DNA of 64,000 nt from a bacterium (GTDB lineage Bacteria > UBA8248 > JACPRG01 > G963555815): positions 3,136,001 through 3,200,000 of the forward strand of contig OZ244653.1 of assembly GCA_965218795.1 (NCBI GenBank), in the 5' to 3' direction. Position numbers and translations under genes: made by a program. Below, piece after piece: positions 8,336 through 38,078 of this stretch (its first letter is position 1; each line of letters opens with the position of its first letter). The notes below the pieces were generated by a model that was given only the letters and a program-made list of their open reading frames with translations, was not told the DNA's origin and searched no databases.

Positions 8336-9820
8336 CTAATGGGCCAAGGCGACGGCGGAGAGACCTTTCAAGAGTCCGGCCACGGAGGTCTGGGCGGCGC
8401 TGAAGAAGGGATGAGGATACAGCCCGATGAACAGGACGCCGATCACCATGATCGCGATGCCGACCGTCAAGGGGAAGGAATTCGACGTCTGAATCCGGCC
8501 CGTCGGTTCTTCCATATACATCAGCATGACGACGCGGAAGTAGTAATAAAGCGATATCGCGCTGTTCAGCATCCCGATGATGGCCAGCCAAACGAACCCG
8601 GCATCAATCGCCGCCGCAAAGAGGTAGAACTTGCCCACGAAACCTCCGGTCGGCGGGATTCCCGTCAAGCTGAGGAAGAAGATCACCAAAGCCAGGGAGG
8701 GCCAGGGATGCTCCCGGGCGAAACCCCGGAAGTCCTCCAGGTTGTCTCCCCGCATGTTCGGCCGGCAGAGGAGGATGATCAGCGCGAAAGCCCCGAGGTT
8801 CGTAAAGAGATAAGCCGCCATGTACAGCATGATGCTGGCGATCCCGGTGCTCGTCGCCACGACGAGCCCGATCAGGATATATCCGGCGTGCGCGATGCTG
8901 GAATAGGCCAACAGCCGCTTGAGGTTGGACTGGACGAGAGCGCCAATGTTGCCCCAGGTCATCGTGACCACCGCCAGGAGCCAGAGCAGGATGGTCCACT
9001 CGTCCTGGGAGCGGCCGAGGCCGACCATAAAAACCCGCACCAGAGCGGCGAAGGCGGCCGCCTTGGTCCCGACGGACATGAAGGCCGTAATGGGGGTGGG
9101 GGCTCCCTGATAGGCGTCCGGCGCCCACATGTGAAACGGCACCAAAGCCACTTTGAAGGCAAATCCGGCCGTCAGCAGGATGATGGACAGGGTCAGCAGG
9201 GGACTGGAGCCCGAGGGCTTTCCCAGGAGGGCCTCGCGGATGCCGTCCAGATAAATCGTTCCGGTGTATCCGTAAATGAGCGCGATCCCGTACAGGACGA
9301 TGGCCGAGCTGAATATCCCAAGCAGGAAATACTTGATGCCCCCTTCCTGCGACGCCAAGTCGCGCTTGAGAAAGCCCACCAGAATGTAAACGGGGATGGA
9401 GAGCAGCTCCAGGCCGATATAAATGGTCAACAGGTCGTTGCCCGAAGCCATGACCATCATGCCGATGGTCGAGAACAGCAGGAGGGAATAGTATTCACCC
9501 AGATTGATCTCTTCGATCTTCAGATAACGGAAGGAGATCAAGACGGTCAGGAAGGTGACGCCCAAAAAGATGAACTTGAAAAACGTGGAGAAATCGTCTA
9601 CCCGGTACATTCCGCCGAACGCCCGAGTGTCCTGTCCCACCATCCGGGCCAAAAAAATTCCAGTGACGACCAGTCCCACCAAAGTGAGGAACCCCACGAA
9701 GCCCTTTCGGGAGGGTGAGAGGAACAGATCCACCAGGATCACCAGGCAGACCAGGGCCGTCATGATGATCTCGGGCAGGATCGGGCCCAACTGAACCGTT
9801 GGCAGGAGAATGGGTTCCAT
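8336..9820 (-). CDS. nuoN: NADH-quinone oxidoreductase subunit N (operon 1)
   Basis: EGGIKYFLLG, FKVALVPFHMWAPDAYQGAPTP, KRLLAYSSIAHAGY. Confidence 0.95.
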   Translation of the reverse strand: MEPILLPTVQLGPILPEIIMTALVCLVILVDLFLSPSRKGFVGFLTLVGLVVTGIFLARMVGQDTRAFGGMYRVDDFSTFFKFIFLGVTFLTVLISFRYLKIEEINLGEYYSLLLFSTIGMMVMASGNDLLTIYIGLELLSIPVYILVGFLKRDLASQEGGIKYFLLGIFSSAIVLYGIALIYGYTGTIYLDGIREALLGKPSGSSPLLTLSIILLTAGFAFKVALVPFHMWAPDAYQGAPTPITAFMSVGTKAAAFAALVRVFMVGLGRSQDEWTILLWLLAVVTMTWGNIGALVQSNLKRLLAYSSIAHAGYILIGLVVATSTGIASIMLYMAAYLFTNLGAFALIILLCRPNMRGDNLEDFRGFAREHPWPSLALVIFFLSLTGIPPTGGFVGKFYLFAAAIDAGFVWLAIIGMLNSAISLYYYFRVVMLMYMEEPTGRIQTSNSFPLTVGIAIMVIGVLFIGLYPHPFFSAAQTSVAGLLKGLSAVALAH

Positions 9821-9823
9821 GGT

Positions 9824-11461
9824 TTACTTTTCCGGCGCGCTCCGGAAGGCCTTTGAAACGATCTCTCGGACTTCCCGGGCCGACCCGGGCGGCGACTTGG
9901 GCACGACAGGACGCGCGAACGCCTTGCCGTCGATGGGCTTGCCCGCTTTCGCCAGTTCCATCTGCTTCACGAGGTTTTTGACCGCGGGCTCCATCAGGTT
10001 GATGAACGGTTTCGGATAGATTCCGATCCAGAACATGAGGAGAATAATCGGCATCATGTAGACGACTTCCCGCACGTTCAGATCCGTCAAATTCTGGTTC
10101 TCGGGCTTATCGAGGTTTCCGAACATCATCCGTTGGAAGAGCCAGAGCATGTATGCCGCCCCCAGGACAATACCCGCCACCGCAAAGCCCGCATAGACCT
10201 TGCTGACCTGGAATGCGCCCACCAGGATCAGGAACTCACCGATAAATCCGTTCAGCCCCGGCAGGCCGATCGAAGAGAACATGGTGATCGCGAAGATGAC
10301 GGTGAAGATTGGGACGACCTTCGAGAGGCCGCCGTAATCGGCGATCAACCTCGTATGACGCCGCTCATAGATGATTCCGACAATCAGGAAGAGCGCCCCC
10401 GTGGAGAGACCGTGGTTGAGGTTTTGAAGGAGAGCGCCCACCAGCCCCTGAGAGTTGAGGGCGAATATGCCCAGCATGACAAAGCCCAAGTGACTCACTG
10501 AGCTGTAGGCCACGAGCTTCTTGACGTCCTGCTGCGCCATGGCGACCAGAGCCCCGTAAATGATGCCGACAATGGCCAACAGCGCCATGAACGGGACCAT
10601 CGTCTCACTCGCCTGCGGCACCAACGGCAAATTGAAACGGACGAAACCGTAGGTTCCCATCTTCAGCAGCACGCCCGCCAGGATCACACTCCCGGCCGTG
10701 GGAGCCTCCACATGCGCGTCGGGCAGCCACGTGTGGAATGGAAACATGGGAACCTTGATGGCGAACCCCACGAAGAGCGCCAGGAAGACCCAGAACTGGT
10801 AGTCCGCAGGAAGCCTGGGCGCCATCCGATAAAGCTCGAGGAGATTGAACGTCAGCTCGCCCGAGCCGTACGCCGGGTTGGCGTTCAGGAAATACAGGGC
10901 CAGGAAGCCCAGCAGAAGGAGGACGCTGCCCACCAGCGTATACAGAAAGAACTTGATGGCCGCGTAAAGCTTTCTGGGCCCGCCCCAGATCCCGATCAGG
11001 AAGTACATCGGGACGAGCATCACCTCCCAGAAGATATAGAACAGGAACAGATCCAGCGAAACGAAGACGCCCAGCATCCCTGTCTCGAGAATGAGGAGGC
11101 TGATGTAGTACTCTTTTTCACGTTCCCCAATGGCTTTGTAGGAACAAAGAATCGAGATCGAGGAGAGAAGGGTCGTCAAGAGAATCAGAAGGATGCTGAT
11201 GCCGTCCAGGCCCATGAAGTAGGTGACGCCGATGGACGGGATCCAAGTGTATTGCTCCACAAACTGCATTCGGACGTTGTTGGCGTCGAAGGCCGGCAAC
11301 AGCCAGAGGGAAAGGGCCAGGGTGATCAGCGATACGATCAGGGTGAAGTTCCTGATGGCCGCCGCCTTCTCCCGGGGGAAGAAGAGCATCACGATGAAGG
11401 CCCCGATGATGGGGACAAAAACCATATAGGTCAAAACCGGGAAACCCAGAACGTTCGTCAT
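9824..11461 (-). CDS. nuoM: NADH-quinone oxidoreductase subunit M (operon 1)
   Basis: FWEVMLVPMY, AIKFFLYT, KVPMFPFHTWLPDAHVEAPT, LLKMGTYG; basic C-terminal extension. Confidence 0.96.
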   Translation of the reverse strand: MTNVLGFPVLTYMVFVPIIGAFIVMLFFPREKAAAIRNFTLIVSLITLALSLWLLPAFDANNVRMQFVEQYTWIPSIGVTYFMGLDGISILLILLTTLLSSISILCSYKAIGEREKEYYISLLILETGMLGVFVSLDLFLFYIFWEVMLVPMYFLIGIWGGPRKLYAAIKFFLYTLVGSVLLLLGFLALYFLNANPAYGSGELTFNLLELYRMAPRLPADYQFWVFLALFVGFAIKVPMFPFHTWLPDAHVEAPTAGSVILAGVLLKMGTYGFVRFNLPLVPQASETMVPFMALLAIVGIIYGALVAMAQQDVKKLVAYSSVSHLGFVMLGIFALNSQGLVGALLQNLNHGLSTGALFLIVGIIYERRHTRLIADYGGLSKVVPIFTVIFAITMFSSIGLPGLNGFIGEFLILVGAFQVSKVYAGFAVAGIVLGAAYMLWLFQRMMFGNLDKPENQNLTDLNVREVVYMMPIILLMFWIGIYPKPFINLMEPAVKNLVKQMELAKAGKPIDGKAFARPVVPKSPPGSAREVREIVSKAFRSAPEK

Positions 11462-11558
11462 TGCAATCGGTCCTTTACATCGCGTCCGGGCGACGGGTCT
11501 TTTCCGACGTCATGCCCGAGAGCTCAGTCATCCGTCCAGTGCGGATTCCGTCCCTCCG

Positions 11559-13595
11559 TTATCCATACAAGAGGTACAAACTCAGAATGATGAATACACC
11601 GATGAGCATGGCGAGGGCATAGTTCTGAACAGCCCCGGTCTGAACCCGCCGGAGGCCCCGCCCCCAATTCGTCAGGATCACACCGATCCCGTTGACGGCC
11701 CCGTCCACCGTCCGCAGGTCAAAGACACCTGACAACCTGCTGGACCAAACGGTCACCCAGGAGGTCCCGTTGACGGCCCCGTCCACGCCCTTGGAGTCCA
11801 CCCAAAACAGGGCCCGCATCAGCCAAAGTATCGGTCGGATGATGCAGGCATCGTAAATCTCGTCCACCCAATACTTGTTCAGCAGCAGGCGATAGGTGCC
11901 CTGGAATCTATCGGTCAGGCGATTGGCCAGATCCAGGTTCTTCGTGTACATGTGCCGGGCGAGCATCCACCCGCTGACCCCGACGACAACGGAGACCGCC
12001 GCCAGAATCCAATGCAGCGCGCCCGATGAACCGCCCCCCGCCGCCGCTGCCAGCTGAATTCCCGCAGGCGCCGCGGCATGGGAAGAAGCCCTGAAAACGG
12101 GCGCCATATAATCCGAAAACCAGTGCAGCCCCGGCATATCCACCCAACCGCCAATCGCCGCCAAAACCGCCAGGATCATCAACGGGATCGTGATGACCGA
12201 TGGTGACTCGTGCAGATGGTGCGCCGCCTCATGGCCCACCCGAGACTCGCCGTAAAAGGTCATGTAGATCAGCCGGAACATGTAAAAAGCCGTCATGAAC
12301 GCCCCGATCAGCCCGATCACGTAGAGCGTGTAATGGCCCGATTCGAACGTCCCGGCCAGAATGGAGTCCTTGCTGAAGAAACCCGCGAACGGGGGAATCC
12401 CCGCGATGGCCAGCGCACCGATGTAGAACGTGATCGCAGTGACGGGCATGTGCTTGCGGAGCCCGCCCATATAACGCATGTCCTGCCGCCGCGCCTCGTC
12501 CGGATCCCCGTGGAGGGCGTGGATGACGCTCCCCGATCCCAGAAAGAGCAGTCCCTTGAAGAAGGCGTGAGTCATCAGGTGAAAGATCGCGAAGGAAAAG
12601 GCTCCCACGCCGCAGCCCAGGAACATATAGCCCAACTGACTCACGGTCGAATAGGCCAGGACCCGTTTGATGTCGTTCTGCACCAGCCCGATAGCCGCCG
12701 CGAATATCGCCGTCAGCCCGCCGATAATCGCCACGATTTCCATTGAGACGGGAGCCAGCAGGTACAGGGCGCTGGATCGGGCCACCATATAAACCCCCGC
12801 CGTCACCATGGTGGCGGCATGGATGAGCGCGCTGACGGGAGTCGGGCCTTCCATGGCGTCGGGCAGCCACACATACAGCGGAATCTGCGCCGATTTTCCG
12901 ACCGCGCCGATGAACAGACAAATCGTGATGAAGGTGGCGGAGGAGGCGATGGCGGAGCCGGGCCCCGCGGCCCGGGCCTGATCGATCACCCCGTCCCCGC
13001 CAAAATAAGCGAGGGTGCCGAAGACCTGGAAGATCATGAACACGCCCAGGAGGAAACCCGCGTCACCGATTCGGTTGACGATGAAGGCCTTCTTCCCCGC
13101 GTCGGACGCGGACTTCTTGTGGTACCAGAAACCAATCAGCAGATAAGAGCACAGCCCCACGCCCTCCCAGCCGACGAACATCAGCAGGTAGTTGTTCCCC
13201 AGGATCAGGATCAGCATGGCGAACATGAAGAGATTCAGGTACGTGAAGAACCGTGCGTAACCCGGATCGCCGTGCATATAGCCGATGGAATAGACGTGGA
13301 TCAGGAAGCCCACACCCGCTACGACAAGCAGCATGACCGAGCTCAGCGGATCGAGACGAAAGCCCACTTCCGTTTTCAGCGTTCCAGCCAGAACCCAGTC
13401 GAAAAGGGTGACTTCGATCGTCCTGCCCTGCAGGATCGTCTGGTTGAGGACGATCAGGGCGAAGAGAAGCGAGAGGGCCGTCGACAGGATGGCGATCCAG
13501 TGCGCCTTCCTGCCGGTCCACCGGCCGAAGAGACCGTTGATCAGGGCTCCCAGACCAGGCAACGCGACAATCCAAGGAATGAGTTGTTCGGCCAT
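11559..13595 (-). CDS. nuoL: NADH-quinone oxidoreductase subunit L (operon 1)
   Basis: GWEGVGLCSYLLIGFW, KAFIVNRIGD, KSAQIPLYVWLPDAMEGPTPVSALIHAATMV. Confidence 0.96.
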   Translation of the reverse strand: MAEQLIPWIVALPGLGALINGLFGRWTGRKAHWIAILSTALSLLFALIVLNQTILQGRTIEVTLFDWVLAGTLKTEVGFRLDPLSSVMLLVVAGVGFLIHVYSIGYMHGDPGYARFFTYLNLFMFAMLILILGNNYLLMFVGWEGVGLCSYLLIGFWYHKKSASDAGKKAFIVNRIGDAGFLLGVFMIFQVFGTLAYFGGDGVIDQARAAGPGSAIASSATFITICLFIGAVGKSAQIPLYVWLPDAMEGPTPVSALIHAATMVTAGVYMVARSSALYLLAPVSMEIVAIIGGLTAIFAAAIGLVQNDIKRVLAYSTVSQLGYMFLGCGVGAFSFAIFHLMTHAFFKGLLFLGSGSVIHALHGDPDEARRQDMRYMGGLRKHMPVTAITFYIGALAIAGIPPFAGFFSKDSILAGTFESGHYTLYVIGLIGAFMTAFYMFRLIYMTFYGESRVGHEAAHHLHESPSVITIPLMILAVLAAIGGWVDMPGLHWFSDYMAPVFRASSHAAAPAGIQLAAAAGGGSSGALHWILAAVSVVVGVSGWMLARHMYTKNLDLANRLTDRFQGTYRLLLNKYWVDEIYDACIIRPILWLMRALFWVDSKGVDGAVNGTSWVTVWSSRLSGVFDLRTVDGAVNGIGVILTNWGRGLRRVQTGAVQNYALAMLIGVFIILSLYLLYG

Positions 13596-13605
13596 GCTCA
13601 GCGAC

Positions 13606-13908
13606 TCACCACTTGAGGATGTTGATCTCGTCCACGTTCAGCGTGGCTTTTCTACGGTTCAGTGAAATGATGAAGGCCAGACCGACCGCCGCCTCGACGG
13701 CGGCAACCGTGATCACGAAGATGACGAACATCTGCCCCATCATGTTTCCGTTCATTTTGGCGAACGCGATGAACGTCAGGTTGACGGCGTTCAGCATCAA
13801 CTCAATCGACATCAGAATCATGATGACGTTCCGCCGCGTCACGACGCCGATCCCGCCGATGACAAAGACCATCCCGGCGAGGGCCAGGTAGTATTCGCCC
13901 GGTACCAT
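13606..13908 (-). CDS. nuoK: NADH-quinone oxidoreductase subunit K (operon 1)
   Basis: [30 protein letters not shown]; start moved to ATG at 13908. Confidence 0.95.
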
Positions 13909-13978
13909 CAGCGTTTCTCTCCCCGAAGGTCGCACGGGCCGGGCAGGCAAACCGGTTGAAGTCTCGCTTGTGTGGTCA

Positions 13979-14497
13979 TCACTCGATATTTCGCTTCGCC
14001 ATGACGATTGCGCCGATCATGGCCGCCAACAGCAACAGCGAAGTCACCTCAAAGGGAAAAAGGAACTGGGTGTAGAGCGTGGCGCCGAACGCCTCGGTGT
14101 TTCCCCCATATGCGTTCAAGACCGATTTCGCGGCTTCGGCCGTCTTCGCCGAAGGGGCCGCGATGCCCTTCGCAAAGATGGCCAGAAGCTCTACGGCGAG
14201 CAGAACCCCGATCACGGCCGCCGCAACCTTCTGGCGGTGCCACTGCCGCTCGGCCATCGACTCCCGGACGTTGATGAGCATGATGACAAAGACATAGAGC
14301 ATCATGATGGCGCCGGCGTAAATCAGCACCTGAATCGCCGCCAGGAATTCCGCTTCGAGCATGACGTACAGGGCGGCCGCGCAAAAGAGCGTCAGCAGCA
14401 GATAGAGCGCCGCGTGAACGACGTTTCGTCGCGTGATCACCAGCACCGAAGCGATCAGCATGACGCCGCCAAAGAGTATGAAGAAGGCCCATTCCAT
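13979..14497 (-). CDS. nuoJ: NADH-quinone oxidoreductase subunit J (operon 1)
   Basis: [40 protein letters not shown]. Confidence 0.95.
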
Positions 14498-14557
14498 CAA
14501 TTCGACCGTCCTTTGCGCTTTCGATCCACCCCGGTCTGCGCGCCGCGCTCGGGCCGA

Positions 14558-15511
14558 TCAGACCAGGTACATCAAAAGTCCAGTCGCGAAGATATTGGCC
14601 AGAGCAAGGGGAAACATGATCTTCCATCCCAATCGCATGAGCTGGTCGTACCGGAACCGCGGCAACGTCGCACGGAGCCACATCATGAAGAACATGCCGA
14701 GGAACACCTTGATGATGAACCAGTGAACGCCCGGAACGATGGGGCCCAGGTAGCCGCCGAAGAAGACGACGGCGGCGACGGAGCAGACGATCAGCATGTT
14801 GGCGTACTCGGCCAGGAAGAAGAAGGCGAACTTCATCCCGCTGTATTCGGTATGGAACCCGGCCACCAGTTCGGTTTCAGCTTCGGGCAGGTCGAAAGGC
14901 ACCCGGTTGGTCTCCGCAAGTCCGGCGATGAAGAACAACACGAAGGCCAGAGGCTGGTAAAAGATATACCAAGCCTCTTGCTGACCCTCGACGATTCCCT
15001 TCATATTCAGAGTGCCCGCAACCATCAATGGCCCGATGAGGGCAAATCCCAGGAAAATCTCATAGGAGATCATCTGCGCAGCCGCTCGGAAGGCCCCGAG
15101 CATTGAATACTTGCTTCCCGAGGCCCAGCCCGCCATCACGACGCCGAATATCCCCAATGAGGAGACACCGACGATAAACAACAGACCAATGTTCAGGTTG
15201 GCGATAATGAACCCTTCGGAAAACGGGATCACGGAATAGACGACGAAGGCGGGGATCAGCGCAAGGAGAGGCGCGATCAGGAAGACCGCCTTGTCGGACT
15301 CCCGCGGAATGATGTCTTCCTTCAAAAAGAGCTTGAGTCCGTCGGCGATTGGCTGCAACAGCCCATGCGGTCCGACGCGCATCGGCCCCAGACGCACCTG
15401 CATATGGCCGATCACCTTCCTCTCCATATACGTCATATAGGCCACCACCAGGGACACGGTCCCCCACACGACGACGATCTTAATCACGGCAAAAACGGTT
15501 TCGACCCACAT
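14558..15511 (-). CDS. nuoH: NADH-quinone oxidoreductase subunit H (operon 1)
   Basis: [47 protein letters not shown]. Confidence 0.96.
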
Positions 15512-15550
15512 CCCTGGTCTGCTGACTCCCTTGCCGGACTGAGGCCTTGG

Positions 15551-16681
15551 TTAGCGGTCTACCTCGCCCAGGACAATGTCGATGCTCCCGATGGCCGCGA
15601 TGGCGTCGGCCACGAGCTGGTCCTGCAACATAAAGGGCAGGGCCTGAAGGTTGATGAAGGAAGGGGGCCGGATCCGCAGCCGGTAGGGCCGGTCCGTCCC
15701 GTCGCTCACAAGGTAATAGCCCAACTCCCCCTTCGGACTCTCGATCCGGTGGTAGACATCCCCCAGCTTCGGCTTGAGCGTCCTCGGCACCTTGGCCATC
15801 GTTCGTCCGGTCGGCAAATCGGAGACTGCCTGATCGATGATGTAGCAGCTCTGACGCATCTCTTCCAATCGGACGAGATAACGATCATAGGTGTCGCCGT
15901 TTTTCCCCACCGGAACGGTAAAGTCGAAATCCTCATAGGCGGCATACGGCTCGGCTTTGCGAATGTCGAACGGGACGCCGGCCCCCCGGATGATGGGCCC
16001 GCTGACGCCCAGATTGGTCGCGTCTTCCGCATTGAGCACCGCGACCCCGCGCGTGCGCTTCTGCCAGATCCGGTTCTCCGTCAGGAGGTCCTCGTAGTCG
16101 TACATCGCCCGGGGGAAATAGCGGACAAAATCTTCGCAGGCGAGGAAAAACTCGGTCGGCGGATCTTCAAAAATTCCACCGACACGGAAGCTGTGAACGG
16201 TGAGTCGCGCCCCGTAGGCGGTCTCAAACAGGTCCAGGATTTTCTCCCGGTCCCGGAAGCAATAGAGAAACACCGTCATGGCCCCGATATCCAGGGCGTG
16301 GGTGCCCAGCCAGAGCAGGTGGCTCGCAATACGGGTCAACTCCGCCGTGATGACGCGAACGTATTTGGCCCGGATGGGAACGTCCAGCTCCAGGAGCTTT
16401 TCGACGGTCTCAACGTAGCCCTCGTTGCCGGTGGGAGAGGCGACGTAGTCCGTTCGATCCGTATAAGGGACAAATTGGCCGTAGGCGAGATTTTCCCCGA
16501 TCTTCTCCACTCCGCGATGGAGGTAACCGATGTCGCAGTCGGTATGCTTGATGGTCTCACCGTCCAACTGGAGGATGACCCGGAGAACACCGTGGGTGCT
16601 GGGGTGCTGGGGCCCCATGTTCACCACCAGTTCTTCGGTCTGCGGAACGATGGGGTCGGTTTTCTCAGGCGCCTGAACCAC
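15551..16681 (-). CDS. nuoD: NADH-quinone oxidoreductase subunit D (operon 1, short form about 376 aa)
   Basis: NMGPQHPSTHGVLR, GYLHRGVEK, DRTDY, DIVLGEVDR; GTG start at 16681 behind GAGAGGA RBS; no NiFe CxxC motifs. Confidence 0.95.
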   Translation of the reverse strand: MVQAPEKTDPIVPQTEELVVNMGPQHPSTHGVLRVILQLDGETIKHTDCDIGYLHRGVEKIGENLAYGQFVPYTDRTDYVASPTGNEGYVETVEKLLELDVPIRAKYVRVITAELTRIASHLLWLGTHALDIGAMTVFLYCFRDREKILDLFETAYGARLTVHSFRVGGIFEDPPTEFFLACEDFVRYFPRAMYDYEDLLTENRIWQKRTRGVAVLNAEDATNLGVSGPIIRGAGVPFDIRKAEPYAAYEDFDFTVPVGKNGDTYDRYLVRLEEMRQSCYIIDQAVSDLPTGRTMAKVPRTLKPKLGDVYHRIESPKGELGYYLVSDGTDRPYRLRIRPPSFINLQALPFMLQDQLVADAIAAIGSIDIVLGEVDR

Positions 16682-16694
16682 TTGGGGTGTCCTC

Positions 16695-17384
16695 TCAGCC
16701 CTTGGACTGGACGGGCCGACTGTCCGGGGGGATCTGCCGTTGCACCCAAGACAATCCGAAACCGTCGCCGGGGAGGGGGTATTCCTTCCGTAGGGGAAAT
16801 CCTTCCCAATCCGCGGGAAGCAGAATCCGGCGCAGGTCGGGATGACCTTCGAACTCAATCCCGAACATGTCGAAAGCTTCCCGCTCGAGCCAGTTCGCTG
16901 TCCGCCAAACGCCCTGAACCGACGAAACGGCATCACCCTCGGCCAGCCGCACCTTCAGCCGGAGGCGCTCGGAGCGCTCGATCGAAAACAACTGATAGAC
17001 GACCTCCAGAGGCTTTTCCCGCTCCGGATAGTGGACCCCGCACAGGTCCGACAGGAAATCGAAGCCATGTTCCTCTTTGAGGAAGCGGCACAATACCAAA
17101 ATCCGGCCAGCGGGCACGACCATGGAGACCTCATCGGGACCTTCCGTAAACGAGGTGACCTCTTCGACTTCGTCTCCGATCAGGCTCCGGACGGCCTGCA
17201 CCCCTCGCAGGGACTCGATGGGATCCTCCGGCTCTTCGGACGGTTCCTCAGGGGGCGCAGCTTCGCCTTCGCCGCCTCCCGCGGAAGCGGCTTCTTCCGT
17301 GTTTTCTTGAGTTTCCGAGGACGGTTCCGACTCGGCAGCGGAGGGAGCCCCTTCTTCCTCCTCCGTCTGATTCTCTTCGGCCAT
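16695..17384 (-). CDS. nuoC: NADH-quinone oxidoreductase subunit C (operon 1) with acidic N-terminal extension
   Basis: ANWLEREAFDMFGI, GHPDLRRILLP, GFPLRKEYP. Confidence 0.95.
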   Translation of the reverse strand: MAEENQTEEEEGAPSAAESEPSSETQENTEEAASAGGGEGEAAPPEEPSEEPEDPIESLRGVQAVRSLIGDEVEEVTSFTEGPDEVSMVVPAGRILVLCRFLKEEHGFDFLSDLCGVHYPEREKPLEVVYQLFSIERSERLRLKVRLAEGDAVSSVQGVWRTANWLEREAFDMFGIEFEGHPDLRRILLPADWEGFPLRKEYPLPGDGFGLSWVQRQIPPDSRPVQSKG

Positions 17385-17399
17385 AAGTTTCCTGAATTG

Positions 17400-17876: not shown

Positions 17877-18259
17877 TCCAGGGCTCCCTTCTTCCAGGCG
17901 TAAACGTATCCTACGAGCAGGATCAAGAGGAAGAGCATCATCTCGATGAACCCGAACAGACCGATACGGTCGTAGACCACGGCCCACGGAAAGAGAAATA
18001 CGCCTTCCACATCGAACAAGAGAAACAGGATGGCAACGATATAGAATCGGATGGAGAAATGCTCGCGCGCCCGGATTAAGGGAGGAATTCCGCATTCATA
18101 AGGTGAAAGTTTTTCCGGATCAGGTCGATGGGGGCGCACAATCGCGGCGATGATCAGCGTTCCTCCTCCGAAGGCCGCCGCCACCAGCAGAAAGATAAAG
18201 ACGGGTATAAATGGATGTATCGACGTATAGTCGCTGAAAAAGCGGCTCAGTAATTCCAC
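17867..18259 (-). CDS. nuoA: NADH-quinone oxidoreductase subunit A (operon 1)
   Basis: [24 protein letters not shown]. Confidence 0.95.
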
Positions 18260-29736: not shown

Positions 29737-30344
29737 GGTGACTCTTTCCCCCCGGACGATTCGGGCGAGGAATCCCCTCCGTCTTCCCCGGATGGAATGG
29801 CTTTCGGACCGGCATCGGCCTCCGCCGTCCCTCCGTTGGCCGTTCCTTTTGACCATTGGTCGATCAATTCATCCAGTCGTTCCGGCGTCAGGTCCACAAT
29901 CAACTCGTCATTGCACCACATCATCGGAGCCCGATCGCAGGCCCCCAGGCATTCGGCCCGCGCCAGGGAAAAACGACGGTCCCGGGAGACCCCTCCCACC
30001 CGAATCCCGAGTTTTCCCTCCAGGTGCTTGATGATGTTCTCCGCCCCCGCCAGGAAACAACTCAGGTTGTGACAGACCCACAGATGGCGCTCGCCGACCG
30101 GCTCGGTGTGAAGCATCTCGTAGAAGCTGGTCACGCTGAGCACATCCATCGGGGAAAGCTCCAGAAGGTCGGCGACGTACTGGATGGCCGCCGGGGAGAG
30201 ATGGCCAAACTCCTCCTGTGCGAGGCGCAGCGTCGGGATCAGCGCGGACCTTCTCCGGTCTTCCGGATACCGGGCGCAGATTCGCTCGAATTCGGCCGTG
30301 CCGTCATCGGAGAACCTCATGGCGGTTCCGTGGCTGTCACTCAA
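29733..30344 (-). CDS. nuoE: NADH-quinone oxidoreductase subunit E (operon 2)
   Basis: VTSFY, VCHNLSC, ECLGACDRAP (N1a); low-complexity C-terminal tail. Confidence 0.94.
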   Translation of the reverse strand: MSDSHGTAMRFSDDGTAEFERICARYPEDRRRSALIPTLRLAQEEFGHLSPAAIQYVADLLELSPMDVLSVTSFYEMLHTEPVGERHLWVCHNLSCFLAGAENIIKHLEGKLGIRVGGVSRDRRFSLARAECLGACDRAPMMWCNDELIVDLTPERLDELIDQWSKGTANGGTAEADAGPKAIPSGEDGGDSSPESSGGKESP

Positions 30345-31579
30345 CGATCGACCTCTCCCAGGACGAAGTCCAAGCTGGCGATGATGGCCACGACGTCCGC
30401 CATCAGCTTTCCGACCATCACCTTTTCCAGGGCCTGAACACTGATGAATGACGGTGGACGGAGCTTGGCTTTATAGGGCTTCGGCCCCCCATCGCTCACG
30501 ATGTAGAACCCCGCCTCTCCCCTTGGTCCCTCAATCGGGACGTAAGCCTCGCCCTTGGGGACGTCAAAACCATGGGTGAAAATCAGGAAGTGATGAATGA
30601 GGGCCTCCATATCGTAACGGAGGCGCTCTTTCGGAGGCGGGACGATCTTGGGCGCGTCCGCGAGGACGGGTCCGTCCGGCAGCCGGGCCAGCGCCTGTCT
30701 GACGATCTTCGCGCTCTCCCTCATTTCCGCCATCCGGACGCGATACCGGTCATAGACGTCGCCTCCGTCCAGGACGGGTACCTCAAAGTCGTAATTCTCG
30801 TATCCGCAATACGGATTCGCCCGTCTCAAGTCGTGCGCGACACCGCATGCGCGAAGATTGGGACCGGTCAGCCCGAGATCGATCGCTTCCTCTACGGTAA
30901 ACGCGCCCACGCCGACCGTCCGCCTTTTGAAGATCGGGTTTTCCGTGAGCAGGGTTTCGTATTCATCCACACGGTCCGGGAAGGCGTTGATGAACGCCCA
31001 AATCTCTTCTTCGAACTCGGGGTAGAGCGGCCGGGCCAGCCCGCCGATTCGGAAATAGCTCGTCATCATCCGAACGCCGGAGACCCGTTCGAAGATTCGG
31101 AGGATCTGCTCCCGTTCCCGAAAGCAGTACAAGAAGACCGTCATGGCGCCCAGGTCGAGGGCGTGCGTTCCCAGCCAGACCAGATGGCTCGCGATCCGCG
31201 TCAATTCGGCCAGGATCACGCGGGCCGTCTCCGCCCGAGGCGGAATCTCCAGCCCCAGAAGCTTTTCCACCGGCAAAACATACGCCAGGTTGTTGGACAG
31301 GGGGGCGAGGTAATCCATTCGGTCCGTGACGGTGATGGCCTGGGTGTACGTTTTCGCCTCCATCGTCTTCTCCATACCGGTATGGAGATAGCCGATGTCG
31401 GCCTCTGCCTTGACCACCGTTTCGCCGTTCAGCTCCAGCGCCAGGCGCAACACCCCATGGGTGCTGGGGTGTTGGGGGCCCATGTTGAGCATCATGGTTT
31501 CGGACTGGAGGCCGGATTCGTCCCCGACGGCCGCGCCTTCCGTCCAGGGCGCTCCAATATCGTCCAGGATCTCAGCCAT
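30341..31579 (-). CDS. nuoD: NADH-quinone oxidoreductase subunit D (operon 2, long form)
   Basis: NMGPQHPSTHGVLR, DRMDY, MEALIHHF, DFVLGEVDR; ATG at 31579. Confidence 0.96.
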   Translation of the reverse strand: MAEILDDIGAPWTEGAAVGDESGLQSETMMLNMGPQHPSTHGVLRLALELNGETVVKAEADIGYLHTGMEKTMEAKTYTQAITVTDRMDYLAPLSNNLAYVLPVEKLLGLEIPPRAETARVILAELTRIASHLVWLGTHALDLGAMTVFLYCFREREQILRIFERVSGVRMMTSYFRIGGLARPLYPEFEEEIWAFINAFPDRVDEYETLLTENPIFKRRTVGVGAFTVEEAIDLGLTGPNLRACGVAHDLRRANPYCGYENYDFEVPVLDGGDVYDRYRVRMAEMRESAKIVRQALARLPDGPVLADAPKIVPPPKERLRYDMEALIHHFLIFTHGFDVPKGEAYVPIEGPRGEAGFYIVSDGGPKPYKAKLRPPSFISVQALEKVMVGKLMADVVAIIASLDFVLGEVDR

Positions 31580-32231
31580 CGTCCGACTCTCTTTTTGGCC
31601 CCGGCCCGGAGGACTCCGGCTCCCGATACTCGTTGACGTATTCTTCGATGGTGGTTTTGTGCCGGGCCCGAACATACGCCTGCCCTTCGGTGAATTGCAC
31701 CGGCTCGTCCCCCGTATCGAAGTCCCTGCGGTGGGGATGCCCTTCGAAGCCCTCCGGCGTCAGGATGCGTTCCAGATGGGGGTGCCCCTTGAATTCGATG
31801 CCCATCAGGTCAAAGGCCTCCCGTTCGTGCCAGTTCGCGGAAGTCCACATCGAAACGACCGAATCCACCGCCGGCGGGTCTCCATCGACGCAGGCCTTCA
31901 GCCGAAGCCGCCGGTGATGGGGAATGGAATAAAGGTTGTAGACCACTGCGAAGCGCGGGCCGTCCACGCCCAGGTCCAGTCGATCCAGACCGCACAGATC
32001 GGCCAACAGGTTATACCGGAGATCGGCGTGGTCCCGCAGGAAGCCGCAGACCTCAAGAAGCCGGCCGGGATCGATCTCAACGGTGGTTTCGTCGCGAAAG
32101 TAGTCGACCGCCCGAATCGCATCACCGAACCGGCCGCGGAGCAAGTCCACCGTGGTTCGGGACAGCGCGACGGCCGGCTCTTCCGCCTCCGGGACTTCCG
32201 TCTGCGATTCGGGTTCCTGGATTTCGGACAT
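31572..32231 (-). CDS. nuoC: NADH-quinone oxidoreductase subunit C (operon 2)
   Basis: ANWHEREAFDLMGI, GHPHLERIL, GHPHRRDF. Confidence 0.95.
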   Translation of the reverse strand: MSEIQEPESQTEVPEAEEPAVALSRTTVDLLRGRFGDAIRAVDYFRDETTVEIDPGRLLEVCGFLRDHADLRYNLLADLCGLDRLDLGVDGPRFAVVYNLYSIPHHRRLRLKACVDGDPPAVDSVVSMWTSANWHEREAFDLMGIEFKGHPHLERILTPEGFEGHPHRRDFDTGDEPVQFTEGQAYVRARHKTTIEEYVNEYREPESSGPGPKRESDDG

Positions 32232-32250
32232 CTTCGATCTGAAACCCCTT

Positions 32251-32268
32251 ATGTGAAATTTATCACAA
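32251..32268. promoter_or_regulatory. Rex/CRP-type palindromic operator inside nuo operon 2 (between nuoB and nuoC)
   Basis: ATGTGAAATTTATCACAA matches 12 of 14 defined positions of Rex TTGTGAA-N4-TTCACAA and contains an exact TGTGA-N6-TCACA; abuts the nuoC RBS. Confidence 0.55.
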
Positions 32269-32359
32269 GCGTTTCGCCGGAAAGGCTCTCCGAAACGAGT
32301 CTGGGCTGGACCGGGGCGACCCCGAACTCATCCCAAGCGTCGTTTCGCGGGTGTCAGGA

Positions 32360-32842
32360 TTACGCCTTCGCTTCTTTCAGGGATTCTTTCTCGATTTTGG
32401 CCTGGAGCTTCAAAATGGAATCGATGAGGGTTTCCGGTCTCGGAGGGCAGCCCGGCACATAGACATCCACCGGGATGATCTGATCCACTCCCTGCACGAG
32501 CGCATAGTTGTTGAACACGCCCCCCGTCGACGCGCAGGCGCCCATGGAGATGACCCATTTCGGCTCAGGCATCTGCTCATACAGCCGCTTGACCACCGGC
32601 GCCATCTTCTTTGAGACCCGGCCCGCCACGATCATCACGTCCGCCTGCCGCGGGGACCCGCGGAAGACCTCCGCGCCAAACCGGGAAAGGTCGAATCGAG
32701 AGGCGGAGGTGGCCATCATTTCGATGGCGCAACAGGCTAGACCGAACAACGCAGGCCACAGGGAGTTCTTCCGGGCCCAGTTCACCAGATCATCCAACCG
32801 GGCCAGGACGACATTGTCTTTAAGATGTTCTTCCAGTCCCAT
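32360..32842 (-). CDS. nuoB: NADH-quinone oxidoreductase subunit B (operon 2)
   Basis: [25 protein letters not shown]. Confidence 0.96.
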
Positions 32843-32846
32843 CAGG

Positions 32847-33203
32847 CTATTTCCAATTGAGTGCGCCCCTGCGCCAGACGTACACCAACCCCATCGCGAG
32901 GATACCGATAAACACGGCCATCTCCACGAACCCGAACACCTTCAGGTCGCGGAAAACCACCGCCCAAGGGTACATGAACACGGCTTCGATGTCGAACAGG
33001 ATGAAGAGCACGGCAATGATGTAGAACTTGACGGAGAAACGGATGCGAGCGTTCCCAATCGCTTCCATTCCGCATTCGTAGGGGCTGTCTTTGACGGCTG
33101 TGCGGCGCCTCCGTCCAATCAGGGCGGAGATGAGAATAGTCGTTGCGGCGAAACCCACGACGACGACGAGCATAACGAAGATCGGGAAATAATCCGATAG
33201 CAT
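32847..33203 (-). CDS. nuoA: NADH-quinone oxidoreductase subunit A (operon 2)
   Basis: [23 protein letters not shown]. Confidence 0.95.
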
Positions 33204-33250
33204 GTCCTATTCCCGGCGGGGCTGAACGGATTCCGCCCGCCTGTGTCCAC

Positions 33251-33279
33251 ACCCTATCCGCGCCCCTTCCGCCTGTCAA
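33251..33279 (-). promoter_or_regulatory. putative sigma70 promoter for nuo operon 2
   Basis: Minus-strand TTGACA (33279-33274), 17-nt spacer, TAGGGT (33256-33251), about 50 nt upstream of nuoA. Confidence 0.55.
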
Positions 33280-33547
33280 GAGACCTTCCCTGCGTCCCAC
33301 TCCTTGGAACCGTGACAGGTCAAAATAATTTCTGATCGACGGAGTCGGCACGCTCCCCACACCGGCCGCGCTGTCCAAGACCATGGCACGGGACCCATTC
33401 TTTATTTTTTACTATTTTAGTGATGAGTCTGGATATTTCCAGTTCTACTTGGGCGAGGGGATGAGTTTGCGTTATCATGGAACCCATGACCGAAGTTCCC
33501 GCCCTCGAATTTCATTGCCCGGACCGGAGCATCGTTGAGAAATCGAC

Positions 33548-35209
33548 ATGCTGATTGACGACCTCAAAGCCATCCAGGAACTCCACGGCTACCTTCCGGA
33601 AAAAGAGCTCCGGGAACTTTCCGCGAAGAGCCGCACGCCGCTTTATGATATTCAAGGCGTTGCCTCCTTCTACCCCCATTTCCACTTGGGGCCCCCGCCT
33701 CCCGTGCGGGTGGAAGTGTGCGCGGATTTGGCCTGCCACCTGTGCGGGGCCGGCGCGCTCAAGGATCGGATTCAGGGCGATATTCCGGCCGTGGATCGGG
33801 ACAAAGTGCGCGTGAACACGGTCTCCTGTATCGGACGATGCGACCGGCCATGCGCGATATCCGTGAATGATCGCATTTACGAGAATATCCAGTCTCAAGA
33901 GGTCATGGCGCTCGTCCGCTCCGCTCTGGAAGGTGAAGACCTGACCGGAAAACCGCCGGAGATGACTCCTGGTCCCTGGAAGCTGGACCCCTACCGGAAC
34001 GGGGATAGGTATCAGGCGCTTCGCAAACTTCTCGCGGACCAGCCGCGGGAAGAAACCATTCAGGGGGTCGAAGCCGTCATCGAAAAGCTCAAGCTCGCCG
34101 GTCTCCGCGGGATGGGCGGCGCCGGCTTCCCCGCTGGACTGAAATGGGAGATCGTCCGCAAAGCCGAAGGCTCGCCCAAATACGTGGTCTGCAACGCGGA
34201 TGAGAGCGAGCCCGGAACCTTCAAAGACCGGGTCATCCTGGAATCGCTCCCCCACCTGCTCGTGGAGGGGATGATCATGGCGGGCCTGACAATAGAATCC
34301 GAAGAGGGGATTATTTATCTGCGTCATGAATACAACCACGTTCTTCCGGCCCTGGAGCGGGAGTTGAACGAGGCGCGGGAGGCGGGCCTTCTCGGCGCGG
34401 ATATCCTGGGGACAGGGCACACGTTTGATATCACCACCTTCATCAGCCCGGGCGGCTACATCTGCGGCGAGGAAACGGCCCTGCTCGAGGCCCTGGAGGG
34501 AAAACGGGCCGAGCCCCGGAACAAGCCCCCTTACCCCGGGAACGTGGGTTTGTGGGGGAAGCCGACCCTCATCAACAACGTCGAGACCTTCGCCCATGCG
34601 CCGGCCATCTACCTGAACGGGGCTGAATGGTTTATTGAACAAGGCGAAGGGGAGGCCGCCGGCCTGAAGTTCTTCGCTCTGTCCGGAGACGTAAACCGTC
34701 CCGGCGTCTATGAAGTTCCGATGGGCATCTCCGCAAGCAGACTGATCGAGCAATACGGCGGCGGTGTCTCGGAGGGCCGGGAACTCAAGGCGATCATGCC
34801 GGGTGGAACCTCCTCGGGCTTCCTTCCGGCTTCCATGGCCGACATTGCGCTGAACTTCAAACCCCTGGAACAGGTCGGATCCATGCTTGGATCCGGGGCC
34901 GTGGTTGCCATCGCCGAGGGCCGCGACATGCTGGACCTGGCCTTCAACGCCATGCGGTTTTTCCGAAACGAATCCTGCGGGAAATGCGTTCCCTGCCGGA
35001 CGGGAACCGAGAAGATCGTCGACATCCTCCAGGGCGCGCTGACCGGGAAAGGGCGTGAGGAGACCAGAGTCTTGATCGAGGAGCTGTCGGCCGCCATGCT
35101 GGAAACGTCCATCTGTGGTCTGGGGCAGGCCGCTCCGAACCCCATCCTGTCCGTCATCCGCCATTTTCCGGAGGAAGTCCTGGCCCGGATTGAGGGTCAG
35201 GCCTCATAG
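33548..35209 (+). CDS. NAD-linked formate dehydrogenase diaphorase subunit; NuoE-NuoF (FdsG-FdsB) fusion
   Basis: N-terminal ASFY, CADLAC...CIGRC ([2Fe-2S]); then GLRGMGGAGFPAGLKW, DESEPGTFKDR, YICGEET, SCGKCVPCRTG, ICGLG. Confidence 0.88.
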   Translation: MLIDDLKAIQELHGYLPEKELRELSAKSRTPLYDIQGVASFYPHFHLGPPPPVRVEVCADLACHLCGAGALKDRIQGDIPAVDRDKVRVNTVSCIGRCDRPCAISVNDRIYENIQSQEVMALVRSALEGEDLTGKPPEMTPGPWKLDPYRNGDRYQALRKLLADQPREETIQGVEAVIEKLKLAGLRGMGGAGFPAGLKWEIVRKAEGSPKYVVCNADESEPGTFKDRVILESLPHLLVEGMIMAGLTIESEEGIIYLRHEYNHVLPALERELNEAREAGLLGADILGTGHTFDITTFISPGGYICGEETALLEALEGKRAEPRNKPPYPGNVGLWGKPTLINNVETFAHAPAIYLNGAEWFIEQGEGEAAGLKFFALSGDVNRPGVYEVPMGISASRLIEQYGGGVSEGRELKAIMPGGTSSGFLPASMADIALNFKPLEQVGSMLGSGAVVAIAEGRDMLDLAFNAMRFFRNESCGKCVPCRTGTEKIVDILQGALTGKGREETRVLIEELSAAMLETSICGLGQAAPNPILSVIRHFPEEVLARIEGQAS

Positions 35210-35339
35210 ACGCGGGAGAATTCCGGACGCAAAGAATCGGGGGAGGACGAGTTGTGAATCGGGCCCGCAACAGACTGCCGCTGGACCCGACGGGTCCCCG
35301 GCTTCCGAACGGATCCTCAGAGGAAGGAAAAATCCAACA

Positions 35340-38078
35340 ATGGCCATTGCAGAAGCCATTCAGACCATCACCGTAACAATTGACGGCGAGGAGGTATCCG
35401 TTCCCGAGGGGACGACCCTCTATGACGCCGCCCTTTCCATCGGCGCCGAAATCCCCACACTGTGCCATGAAACCAAGCTGAACCCTGTGGGGGTCTGTCG
35501 GGTCTGCGTCGTCGAGGTGGAAGGAGGCCGCGTCCTTGCGCCTTCATGTTGCAGGACGGTCGAGGAAGGCATGGTCGTCAAGACGGCCTCCGAGCGGGTC
35601 AAGAATTCGCAGAAGATGCTCGTCGAGCTTCTGATGGCGGATCATCCGGCTCCCTGCGAAAGGCACCGGAAAACGGGCGACTGCGAGCTGGAGGTTCTGG
35701 CCGATCGGCTGGGCCTGACGGATTCCAGATTCGCGCCCCGTGCTCACGAAAACGGCCGTGATACCTCCTCCAAAGTCATCGACGTCGACCACGACGCCTG
35801 CATCCTTTGCGATCGGTGCATCCGGGCCTGCACGGACCTTCAGTCCAACGACGTTATCGGCCGGACGGGCAAGGGCTTTCCGGCGAAGATCAGCTTCGAC
35901 TTCGATCTGCCGATGGGCGGATCGACCTGCGTTTCCTGCGGGGAATGCGTGGCCGCCTGTCCCACCGGCGCACTGACCGAGAAGCCGTTGGTCGCCGAGC
36001 GCAGGGAAACCGCAAATCAGGTGGGCTCCGTCTGCCCCTACTGCGGGGTCGGATGCTCCATTACTTACCACGTGGAGGACAACCACATCGTCGGCGTCAC
36101 GGGCAGGGAAAGTCCGGTGAACCACGGGCGCCTCTGCGTGAAGGGCCGCTACGGATACGACTACGCCCACCACAAGGACCGGCTAACGGTCCCCCTGATA
36201 CGCAAGGACGGCGCGCCCAAGTCCCCCGAATCCCTCGACCACCCCATGGACGCCTTCCGCGAAGCCACCTGGGAGGAAGCCATGGATCGGGCGGCCTCCA
36301 GCTTCCTGCGAACCAAGCGGGCACACGGCTCTGACGCGCTGGCGGGTTTCGGTTCCGCCAAGTGCTCGAACGAGGACAACTACCTCTTTCAGAAACTGAT
36401 TCGCGCGGTCTTCGGGACCAACAACGTCGACCACTGCACACGGCTCTGCCATGCCTCTTCCGTGGTCGCACTGATGGAGCAGATCGGCAGTGGCGCCGTG
36501 TCCAACGTGTTCGCCGACGTGGGCCTGGCCGACGTGGCGCTGGTGGCCGGCTCCAATGCCGAGTCCAACCATCCAGTGGCGGCGACCTTCATGAAGGAAG
36601 CGCAAGAGTCCGGGATGAAGCTGATCGTGGCCGACCCGCGCAAGGTTTCCCTCGCGCGGCGCGCCGACTACTATGTCGGCTTCCGGCCGGGGACGGACGT
36701 CGCATTCTTCAACGGCATGCTGCACGTCATCTTCCGGGACGGGCTGGAAAACAAGAAGTTCATTGCAATGCGGACAGAGGGTTTCGAGGCTCTCCGCCGG
36801 CTGGTCGCCGATTATCCGCCCGGTCGCGTGGAGAAGATCACAGGCGTCAAGGCCGAGCTCATCGAAGAAGTCGCCCGGGTGTACGCCACGGCGGAGCGGG
36901 CCATCACCTTCTGGGGCATGGGGATCAGCCAGCATACCACCGGGACGGACAACACACGCTGCCTCGTCGATCTGGCCCTGGTGACCGGCCACATCGGCCG
37001 CCCCGGAACGGGCCTGCACCCGCTGCGCGGGCAGAACAACGTTCAGGGCGCTTCGGACGTGGGTCTCATTCCCACAGTCTACACGGACTATCAGTCGGTG
37101 AAAGATCCGCAGGTCAAGGAAAAGTTCGAGAAGGCTTGGGGCGCCTCCCTGAGCGACAAGCCGGGGCTGACGGTCGTCGAAATCATGCATCAGGTCCTCG
37201 ACGGCAACATCAAGGCCATGTACATCATGGGCGAGAACCCCCTCCTCTCCGACCCCAACACCAATAAGGTCAAAAAGGCGCTCGCCGCGATGGAGTTCCT
37301 GGTCGTCCAGGATATCTTCCTGACCCAGACCGCACGGTACGCGGACGTCGTCCTTCCAGCCACCGCATTTCCGGAAAAGACCGGGACATATACCAACACG
37401 GACCGCCGCGTCCAGGTCGGAGAGAAGGCGCTCGTTCCGCCCGGACAGGCCCGCACGGACTGGGAGGTGGTCGCGGACATGGCGCGCCGGATGGATTACC
37501 CCATGAAATACGATTCGGTCGAAGAGATATTCGAGGAAGTCCGCGCCGTCACGCCCAGCATGGCGGGCCTGACGTACGATCGGCTCCGGGAGACCGGGGG
37601 CATCAACTGGCCCGCGCCCGATGAGGACCATCCGGGGACAAACGTCCTCTTCGAGGAAGAGTTTCCCAACGGCAAGGGAAAGCTGGTCGCTTGCGAATGG
37701 AAACCGGCCTTCGAGGTCGAAGACGATGAGTATCCGCTCATCCTCAACACCGGACGCATGCTCGAGCACTGGCACACGGGCGTCATGACCCGCCGGTCCA
37801 AGGCCCTGCACGGCATCCAGCCCGAAGCTCTGGTGGAGATGCACCCGGACGACCTGGAGGAACTGGGAGTGAAGAGCGGGGATTTCGTCCGGGTGAGCTC
37901 CCGGCGCGGTGAGATCCGCCTGAAGGCAATCGGGACGGACTACACGCCGAGAGGCAGCGTGTTCATCCCCTTCCATTTCGAAGAGGCGGCGGCCAACCTC
38001 CTGACCATCGACGCTCTCGATCCGTACGGAAAGATCCCCGAGTTCAAGTACTGCGCCGTCAAGGTCGAACCGGCGTAG
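35340..38078 (+). CDS. fdhF: formate dehydrogenase alpha subunit (Mo/W-bis-PGD, FdsA/FdhF type, Cys ligand)
   Basis: NuoG-like Fe-S N-terminus, CPYCGVGC, GRLCVKG, NNVDHCTRLCHASS, PLRGQNNVQGASD, GKIPEFKYCAV. Confidence 0.93.
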   Translation: MAIAEAIQTITVTIDGEEVSVPEGTTLYDAALSIGAEIPTLCHETKLNPVGVCRVCVVEVEGGRVLAPSCCRTVEEGMVVKTASERVKNSQKMLVELLMADHPAPCERHRKTGDCELEVLADRLGLTDSRFAPRAHENGRDTSSKVIDVDHDACILCDRCIRACTDLQSNDVIGRTGKGFPAKISFDFDLPMGGSTCVSCGECVAACPTGALTEKPLVAERRETANQVGSVCPYCGVGCSITYHVEDNHIVGVTGRESPVNHGRLCVKGRYGYDYAHHKDRLTVPLIRKDGAPKSPESLDHPMDAFREATWEEAMDRAASSFLRTKRAHGSDALAGFGSAKCSNEDNYLFQKLIRAVFGTNNVDHCTRLCHASSVVALMEQIGSGAVSNVFADVGLADVALVAGSNAESNHPVAATFMKEAQESGMKLIVADPRKVSLARRADYYVGFRPGTDVAFFNGMLHVIFRDGLENKKFIAMRTEGFEALRRLVADYPPGRVEKITGVKAELIEEVARVYATAERAITFWGMGISQHTTGTDNTRCLVDLALVTGHIGRPGTGLHPLRGQNNVQGASDVGLIPTVYTDYQSVKDPQVKEKFEKAWGASLSDKPGLTVVEIMHQVLDGNIKAMYIMGENPLLSDPNTNKVKKALAAMEFLVVQDIFLTQTARYADVVLPATAFPEKTGTYTNTDRRVQVGEKALVPPGQARTDWEVVADMARRMDYPMKYDSVEEIFEEVRAVTPSMAGLTYDRLRETGGINWPAPDEDHPGTNVLFEEEFPNGKGKLVACEWKPAFEVEDDEYPLILNTGRMLEHWHTGVMTRRSKALHGIQPEALVEMHPDDLEELGVKSGDFVRVSSRRGEIRLKAIGTDYTPRGSVFIPFHFEEAAANLLTIDALDPYGKIPEFKYCAVKVEPA

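Follow-up and report, generated by a model that had tools for sequence, protein, structure and literature searches.

Two kinds of described system lie closest to the genes reported here, the soluble NAD-linked formate dehydrogenases (FDHs) and the 11-subunit forms of complex I. Among the former, the tungsten enzyme FDH1 of Methylorubrum (Methylobacterium) extorquens AM1 (Fdh1AB, MeFDH1 or FoDH1; PDB 7E5Z, 7VW6, 7XQW and 8J83) appears in the available part of PMC10869683 as a purified alpha-beta heterodimer of ~169 kDa, assayed by formate-dependent NAD+ reduction and hence in the direction from formate to NAD+. The same text gives Cys436 as the W ligand and equates the beta subunit with FdsB plus FdsG, i.e. 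NuoF plus NuoE. FdsABG(D) of Rhodobacter capsulatus and Cupriavidus necator (PDB 6TG9/6TGA and 6VW7) is of the same family, that of the NuoEFG-related Mo-FDHs that are soluble and NAD-linked. The 11-subunit enzymes (nuoABCDHIJKLMN), which include cyanobacterial and chloroplast NDH-1 and an enzyme of Desulfitobacterium hafniense, share their subunit set and do without NuoE, NuoF and NuoG. The electron donor of the bacterial 11-subunit complex I has long been an open question (PMC11238625, in the part available). A nearby NuoEFG-like FDH seems an attractive candidate. Here we describe a window of 64,000 nucleotides (nt) of bacterial DNA (contig OZ244653.1, positions 3,136,001 to 3,200,000), meaning the whole stretch that was analysed, in which a reduced ('headless') nuo operon of 10 genes, a full nuo operon of 14 genes and a pair of FDH genes, fdhB and fdhA, lie side by side. 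We use the prefixes r_ and f_ for genes of the reduced and the full operon.

On the open reading frame (ORF) listing and on Pfam and NCBIfam matches, the order along this stretch of 30 kb is the reduced operon (8336..18259, minus strand), the full operon (18404..33203, minus strand), a divergent intergenic region of exactly 344 nt from f_nuoA to fdhB (33204..33547), and then fdhB and fdhA on the plus strand. The reduced and full operons are diverged old paralogues with 41-62% identity per subunit pair. A first-pass annotation of this DNA had described two diverged nuo operons head to tail, a 344-nt divergent gap, a NuoE-NuoF fusion and an FdhF protein with a NuoG-like Fe-S N-terminus, all of which the Pfam, NCBIfam and TIGR01591 matches bear out. 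It had further suggested that the headless complex could have its missing input module in the FDH pair, and here our data point the other way. Drawing on gene content, homology, cofactor and active-site motifs, synteny and phyletic pattern, we conclude that the stretch very probably encodes three separate machines, each of a known kind: a canonical complex I, a headless complex I and a soluble NAD-linked FDH.

To begin with the phyletic pattern, 60 relatives were searched, 50 of them in the same class, with six relatives in the window's family and 42 in its sister family, f2. A reduced-type NuoD (62-96% identity) is present in 49 of the 50 class genomes, the exception being 79% complete. Full and reduced NuoD are 14.6-15.8 kb apart on the same strand, with the headless operon downstream of the full one, in 36/36 genomes that hold both on one contig; the two are on different contigs in 11 genomes, two genomes have the reduced type only and one gave no match. 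Moreover, each genome with a full operon also has a headless one. Therefore, the tandem is fixed throughout the class, irrespective of the FDH. FdhA was found in 30/50 class genomes (4/6 in the window's family and 26/42 in f2), each time adjoining FdhB, and the headless operon is kept in all 20 genomes without FdhA. Co-occurrence of the FDH with the 10-gene operon, which had been set beforehand as the test of their pairing, does not hold on these counts (30/50 vs 49/50). Nor does synteny join the two. The FDH lies divergent to nuoA only in the window's family (the window's own genome, G001, G003, G004 and G006), where it faces the full operon, and in f2 it lies at least 1.0 Mb from nuo in 12/12 same-contig cases. 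The arrangement of a formate hydrogenlyase-type enzyme, with an FDH both encoded together and co-occurring with the membrane core, is thus not what these genomes display. Two further genomes of the window's family, G002 and G005 (95% complete; 6 and 2 contigs), gave no match at all to Complex1_51K and have neither a full nuo operon nor FdhAB, and they do carry the headless operon and its unlinked nuoI. Since they keep the headless operon with no NuoF-like domain, the headless complex needs neither this FDH nor a NuoF-type module.

These patterns bear directly on the docking proposal, in which the NuoG-like Fe-S domain of FdhAB would attach it to the NuoI, NuoB and NuoD subunits of the headless complex, yielding a proton-pumping formate:quinone oxidoreductase or, in reverse, a CO2 reductase. 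FdhA and FdhB are homologous to NuoEFG, the three units stand together in five genomes of three genera, and FdhB is the only NuoF-like protein outside the full operon in the genome. The 11-subunit enzyme has also been proposed as a platform for several donors (PMC11238625, in the part available, citing Moparthi and Hagerhall 2011). However, besides the 20 genomes that dispense with FdhA, the two that dispense with any NuoF-like domain and the unlinked FDH of f2, the FDH of the window itself faces the full operon, ~15 kb from the promoter of the reduced one, and is co-linear with a soluble heterodimer, with no added docking domain. Likewise, the proteomes of D. hafniense, as reported in the same part of PMC11238625, showed no co-variation between the 11-subunit complex and an FdsABG-like FDH that had been wrongly annotated as nuoEFG. 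From the wider phyletic pattern it follows that FdhAB cannot be the general or obligatory partner of the headless complex, and docking of this kind is extremely unlikely. A lineage-specific add-on, in which FdhAB of the window's family also plugs into the headless complex via the unlinked NuoI, would explain the intact block, and we hold it to be exceedingly improbable as well. If true, it would amount to a facultative proton-pumping formate:quinone oxidoreductase, and FdhAB would be the first protein to be named as donor to a bacterial complex I of 11 subunits.

The simpler reading offered in the first-pass annotation, an NAD-linked soluble FDH that feeds the full complex, is supported by the make-up of the two subunits. 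The predicted diaphorase FdhB (33548..35209, plus strand; 553 aa; assigned by Pfam and PDB 7e5z_B) combines 2Fe-2S_thioredx (PF01257), Complex1_51K (PF01512), SLBB and NADH_4Fe-4S (PF10589) in one ORF, that is, a NuoE-like [2Fe-2S] domain and a NuoF-like domain for flavin mononucleotide (FMN), NAD and [4Fe-4S], with cysteines at 58/63/94/98 and 477/480/483/523. It aligns over its full length with PDB 7e5z_B (query 1-542 to chain 51-561, 366.8 bits) and, unlike the beta subunit of MeFDH1, is without ~50 N-terminal residues, the alignment beginning at chain residue 51. The catalytic subunit FdhA (35340..38078, plus strand; 912 aa) is encoded in an ORF that is open from 35115, with a probable ATG at 35340 that fits the orthologues of 912 aa in G041 and 913 aa in G011. 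It contains Fer2_4, Fer4_Nqo3-like, Molybdop_Fe4S4, Molybdopterin and Molydop_binding domains, i.e. a NuoG/HoxU-like Fe-S N-terminus followed by a Mo/W-bis-molybdopterin guanine dinucleotide (bis-MGD) domain with a Cys-His active site, and matches TIGR01591 at 823.8 bits (cut-off 666). Among all solved structures the best match is PDB 7vw6_A/7e5z_A (1036 bits; ORF residues 81-987, 907 residues, with few gaps). The motifs CTRLCHASSV and PLRGQNNVQG, the latter bearing the Arg, are identical to those of the solved M. extorquens enzyme. Cysteine clusters of the 912-aa protein fall at 42/53/56/70, 154/157/160/164, 197/200/203/207 and 232/235/239/266, and as there is no in-frame stop FdhA is not a selenoprotein. 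We found no extra domain or membrane-like segment in FdhA or FdhB, whose maximum 19-residue hydropathy is 1.5 vs 2.5 for NuoA and NuoH.

The two-subunit design is therefore that of MeFDH1, with which FdhAB shares an alpha subunit of [2Fe-2S] and [4Fe-4S] NuoG/HoxU-like N-terminus, bis-MGD domain and Cys ligand, and a beta subunit in which NuoE-like and NuoF-like parts form one chain. Unlike in MeFDH1, the fdh genes here are divergent to a nuo operon and are separated by a gap of 130 nt, which compares with ~15 nt in the class relatives G041 and G011. A single-chain FdhB-FdhA fusion in some relatives, suggested by open frames of ~1480 aa, was rejected, as the ORF listings of G041 and G011 each give two separate ORFs. 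Matches to the Fds enzyme are lower (FdsA 692.6 bits, FdsB 255-332 bits). There FdsG and FdsB are separate chains and FdsD is present, whereas here the chains are fused and none of fdhD, fdsC, fdsD and mobA is adjacent to fdhAB; an FdhD homologue lies unlinked, at 2.456 Mb of the window's genome. Fused NuoE-NuoF proteins are common. The best 5 of 30 Atlas clusters have 56-337 members each, most or all of them with the three Pfam domains, and PF01257 in 73-100%. The commonest taxon label of the cluster nearest to FdhB is Planctomycetota, which does not place the lineage, and neither do the RpoB matches of a pattern scan, at 52-66% and scattered over many phyla. A kinship with Nitrospira raised by a pattern scan with FdhB was dropped, as the Nitrospira matches are adjacent nuoE and nuoF genes and not fusions. 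FdhAB is thus, as judged by its sequence, a Cys-type Mo/W NAD-linked FDH of the MeFDH1/Fdh1AB type, presumably soluble and NAD-reducing. It adds a further Cys-type relative, from an uncultured lineage, of an enzyme studied for CO2 reduction.

In the working that we propose, formate would be oxidised at the bis-MGD site of a soluble, cytoplasmic FdhA, from which its NuoG-like Fe-S clusters would carry the electrons to the FMN in the NuoE-NuoF fusion and so to NAD+. The neighbouring canonical complex I would then re-oxidise the NADH. The adjacency of FDH and nuo in all likelihood pairs an enzyme that makes NADH with one that uses it, and not a physical head with its body. Formate may arise inside the cell, given that the genome encodes a formate-tetrahydrofolate ligase (FTHFS; 849.6 bits) and no FocA/NirC-family formate channel was found in it. 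The same two observations, together with FdhA being the only FDH alpha subunit above the family cut-off in this genome, would also suit an FDH that works mainly in reverse, as an NADH-driven CO2 reductase giving formate to FTHFS for C1 assimilation, with NADH supplied via reverse electron flow in complex I. The reversibility reported for such enzymes, in the literature as far as it was available, would suit it too. However, CO2 reduction by NADH is thermodynamically uphill in ordinary conditions, and the role of the characterised homologue in methylotrophy is to oxidise formate. On balance we think a mainly reverse direction unlikely.

Several observations weigh against a division into three separate machines with a soluble, NAD-reducing FDH. 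NAD dependence, solubility and the choice between Mo and W are all read from homology. Conservation of the FDH-nuo-nuo block across three genera of the window's family (five genomes) could mean more than a hand-over of NADH, and FdhB is one of just two NuoF-like proteins in the window's genome, the other being f_NuoF. FDH and nuo are on different contigs in 14 genomes of f2, the distance being measurable in the 12 given above. Moreover, the donor of the bacterial 11-subunit complex I is still treated as an open question in the available part of PMC11238625, where ferredoxin is proposed, so ferredoxin is a guess. Lastly, a few short, exact contigs of low depth from four public runs match f_nuoN, f_nuoG, f_nuoB, f_nuoF, f_nuoE and f_nuoD as well as fdhB and fdhA. 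Two of these runs are recorded as RNA libraries and two are guessed to be RNA, and the stretch compared covered the f_nuo and fdh genes, the reduced operon lying outside it. Such traces hint at transcription weakly at best. They can neither rank nor prove expression, and stretches that they leave uncovered carry no meaning.

The reduced operon, assigned by Pfam and NCBIfam, runs nuoA-B-C-D-H-J-K-L-M-N on the minus strand. Its genes are r_nuoA (17867-18259), r_nuoB (17400-17876), r_nuoC (16695-17384), r_nuoD (15551-~16681), r_nuoH (14558-15511), r_nuoJ (13979-14500), r_nuoK (13606-13950), r_nuoL (11559-13595; 678 aa), r_nuoM (9824-11461; 545 aa) and r_nuoN (8336-9820). As nuoD is directly followed by nuoH there is no nuoE, nuoF or nuoG in it, and the gap of just 57 nt between nuoH and nuoJ leaves no nuoI. 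This set of subunits, from which E, F and G are missing, is the one expected of a complex I that lacks its N-module. Across the 30 best loci, from 30 genomes, B-C-D-H(-J) is kept and the D-H and H-J junctions are empty in 30/30, one locus reaching a contig edge before J. The printed N-terminus of r_NuoD holds GPQHPSTHGVLR and a 10-residue motif is likewise seen in r_NuoB; these are candidate N2-cluster or quinone-site motifs, the comparison having covered the N-termini. For r_NuoB, a 231-aa ORF that overlaps nuoA was set aside, its first 73 residues looking off-frame; homology begins at residue 74 and the ATG at 17876 was therefore taken as the start. The N-terminus of r_NuoC (17220-17384, minus strand) is a tail of ~55 residues, strongly acidic and rich in Glu, Pro and Ser. 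This tail is not conserved in sequence, tblastn matches in relatives starting at residues 54-87.

A candidate for the eleventh subunit is encoded elsewhere in the genome. Two NuoI proteins exceed the cut-off, one in the full operon and the other encoded 1.5 Mb away (G000:C1:4702373-4702741, locus L010 8332-8790, minus strand; TIGR01971 124 bits, cut-off 113). This orphan nuoI lies 80 nt downstream of trxB, the gene for thioredoxin reductase (TIGR01292, 370 bits), and is followed after 41 nt by a gene for nicotinate phosphoribosyltransferase; the trxB-nuoI pair is kept in 5/5 class genomes checked. The orphan NuoI shares 72-73% identity with the single NuoI of G002 and of G005, 54-55% with the orphan NuoI of G009, G011 and G020, and 37-40% with the in-operon NuoI of full operons (those of G009, G011, G020 and the window, the window's own at 40%). 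From orthology with the sole NuoI of the headless-only G002 and G005 we infer that the orphan NuoI belongs to the headless complex. By its gene content, the reduced operon plus the unlinked nuoI corresponds to an 11-subunit headless complex I. The nearest relatives of r_NuoD outside the class (58-61% identity) sit in A-B-C-D-H-I-J-K-L operons with nuoI in place, in metagenome-assembled genomes labelled Acidobacteriota, Terriglobia, Solibacteraceae, Aquificota/Aquificales, Thermodesulfobacteriota and Thermosulfidibacter. Unlike these and other 11-subunit operons, that of the present class has its nuoI outside the operon, beside trxB, and is fixed directly downstream of a full nuo operon. The relocation of nuoI beside trxB and the class-wide tandem of full and headless operons are small new facts.

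A second complex I without NuoE and NuoF beside a canonical one is also known from Nitrospira, whose 2M complex I (Chadwick et al. 2018, as cited in the available parts of PMC6606698 and PMC8115632) has a second NuoM and a lengthened NuoL and was proposed to link quinol and ferredoxin. Unlike it, the reduced operon has one NuoM and one NuoN, and its NuoL is not markedly longer than that of the full operon (678 aa vs 653 aa). With a single NuoM and an unremarkable NuoL it is therefore not of the 2M type. Moreover, no orthologue of the headless NuoD was found in three Nitrospira genomes, where the best NuoD reaches 54% identity vs 62-65% in the class relatives.

In our proposal, electrons would enter or leave separately through the headless complex by way of a low-potential carrier, for which ferredoxin is the likeliest, and the electron partner of this complex would be encoded outside the cluster. 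Ferredoxin could be reduced, for example, by the 2-oxoacid:ferredoxin oxidoreductases of these genomes; POR_N-type ferredoxin oxidoreductases are present in 5/5 genomes checked, G002 and G005 included. Alternatively, the headless core might borrow NuoEFG from the operon upstream of it and so form a second isoform of NADH dehydrogenase with other membrane and quinone-site subunits. Such sharing would explain the tandem, whose order is the same in all 36 same-contig genomes; each genome with a full operon has a headless one too. In addition, a consensus scan of the spacer found no terminator-like site between f_nuoN and r_nuoA. Nevertheless, G002 and G005 keep the headless operon and NuoI with neither a full operon nor a NuoF-like domain, so that in these two at least the core functions without NuoEFG. 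Outside the class, the nearest relatives of the reduced operon consist of 11 genes and stand alone, and the reduced operon is preceded by a conserved promoter-like region of its own. A shared head is accordingly a very doubtful explanation, and we retain that of a separate complex, with ferredoxin as its presumed partner, as the probable one.

This putative control region of the reduced operon (18338..18401, minus strand) emerged from a consensus scan and from an alignment of five genomes of three genera, and places a promoter-like region directly behind the full operon. An 18-nt block, TTGTGAAAAAAAGTGCAA, at 18401-18384 (minus strand) begins 3 nt past the f_nuoN stop and is invariant in the five genomes. 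Ahead of r_nuoA follow a -35-like TTTACG (18365-18360) and a -10 TATAAT (18343-18338), a pair with 10/12 consensus matches, of which TATA.T at 18343-18338 is invariant in the same alignment. The 18-nt block, upstream of this pair, might serve as an UP element or bind a regulator. For f_nuoA, a TTGACA-17-TAGGGT block at ~33280-33252 (minus strand), ~50 nt ahead of the gene, is likewise conserved in an alignment of five genomes of three genera. The suggestion that each nuo operon has its own candidate promoter thus gains from this conservation beyond the consensus match. The 344-nt gap also holds a weaker promoter-like site from the consensus scan, at 33441-33414. A shared bidirectional control element in the gap was considered and rejected, only the nuoA-proximal block being conserved across the five genomes; the FDH-side half differs between genera and is not conserved across the family.

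Taken together, this class of genomes offers a natural test of an FDH as donor to an 11-subunit complex I. The answer is negative, and it warns against over-reading synteny of this kind. A fact for later work is that a headless complex I is fixed behind the canonical one, with its nuoI moved beside trxB, and G002 and G005 lend themselves to a search for what really feeds electrons to the headless enzyme. Both belong to the same family as the window and have genomes of ~2.1 Mb.

The full operon, nuoA-N, was assigned by Pfam and NCBIfam and has the same order in relatives; its product would be a canonical NADH:quinone oxidoreductase. Its 14 genes, all on the minus strand, are f_nuoA (32847-33203; a 118-aa ORF), f_nuoB (32360-32842), f_nuoC (31572-32231), f_nuoD (30341-31675), f_nuoE (29733-30344), f_nuoF (28447-29856), f_nuoG (25870-28443), f_nuoH (24890-25873), f_nuoI (24340-24915), f_nuoJ (23828-24343), f_nuoK (23421-23801), f_nuoL (21494-23455), f_nuoM (19875-21455) and f_nuoN (18404-19975). 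These coordinates are ORF limits, and in several genes the true start is probably further downstream.

The flanks are unrelated to the cluster, with thyX below and a generic S-adenosylmethionine-dependent methyltransferase, hsp20 and aminotransferases above. The thyX ORF (6666-8147, minus strand) encodes 493 aa, ~2x the usual length, and its ThyX domain is matched in two stretches within residues 39-253. DNA of this lineage occurs in public runs, among which two RNA libraries bear the label 'sponge metagenome'; we found no literature linking sponge symbionts, complex I and nuoEFG. In G001, which is of the same genus, the locus C3:38814-42920 that matches window positions 14054-18160 has 49% G+C vs 59% in the window's genome, and the r_NuoD protein of G001 is 96% identical to that of the window. 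Lastly, two tandem transporters of the major facilitator superfamily (1798-4386, minus strand), ~30 kb from the FDH, are related to carriers of L-lactate and of oxalate/formate at 204-209 bits, under the family cut-offs (320).

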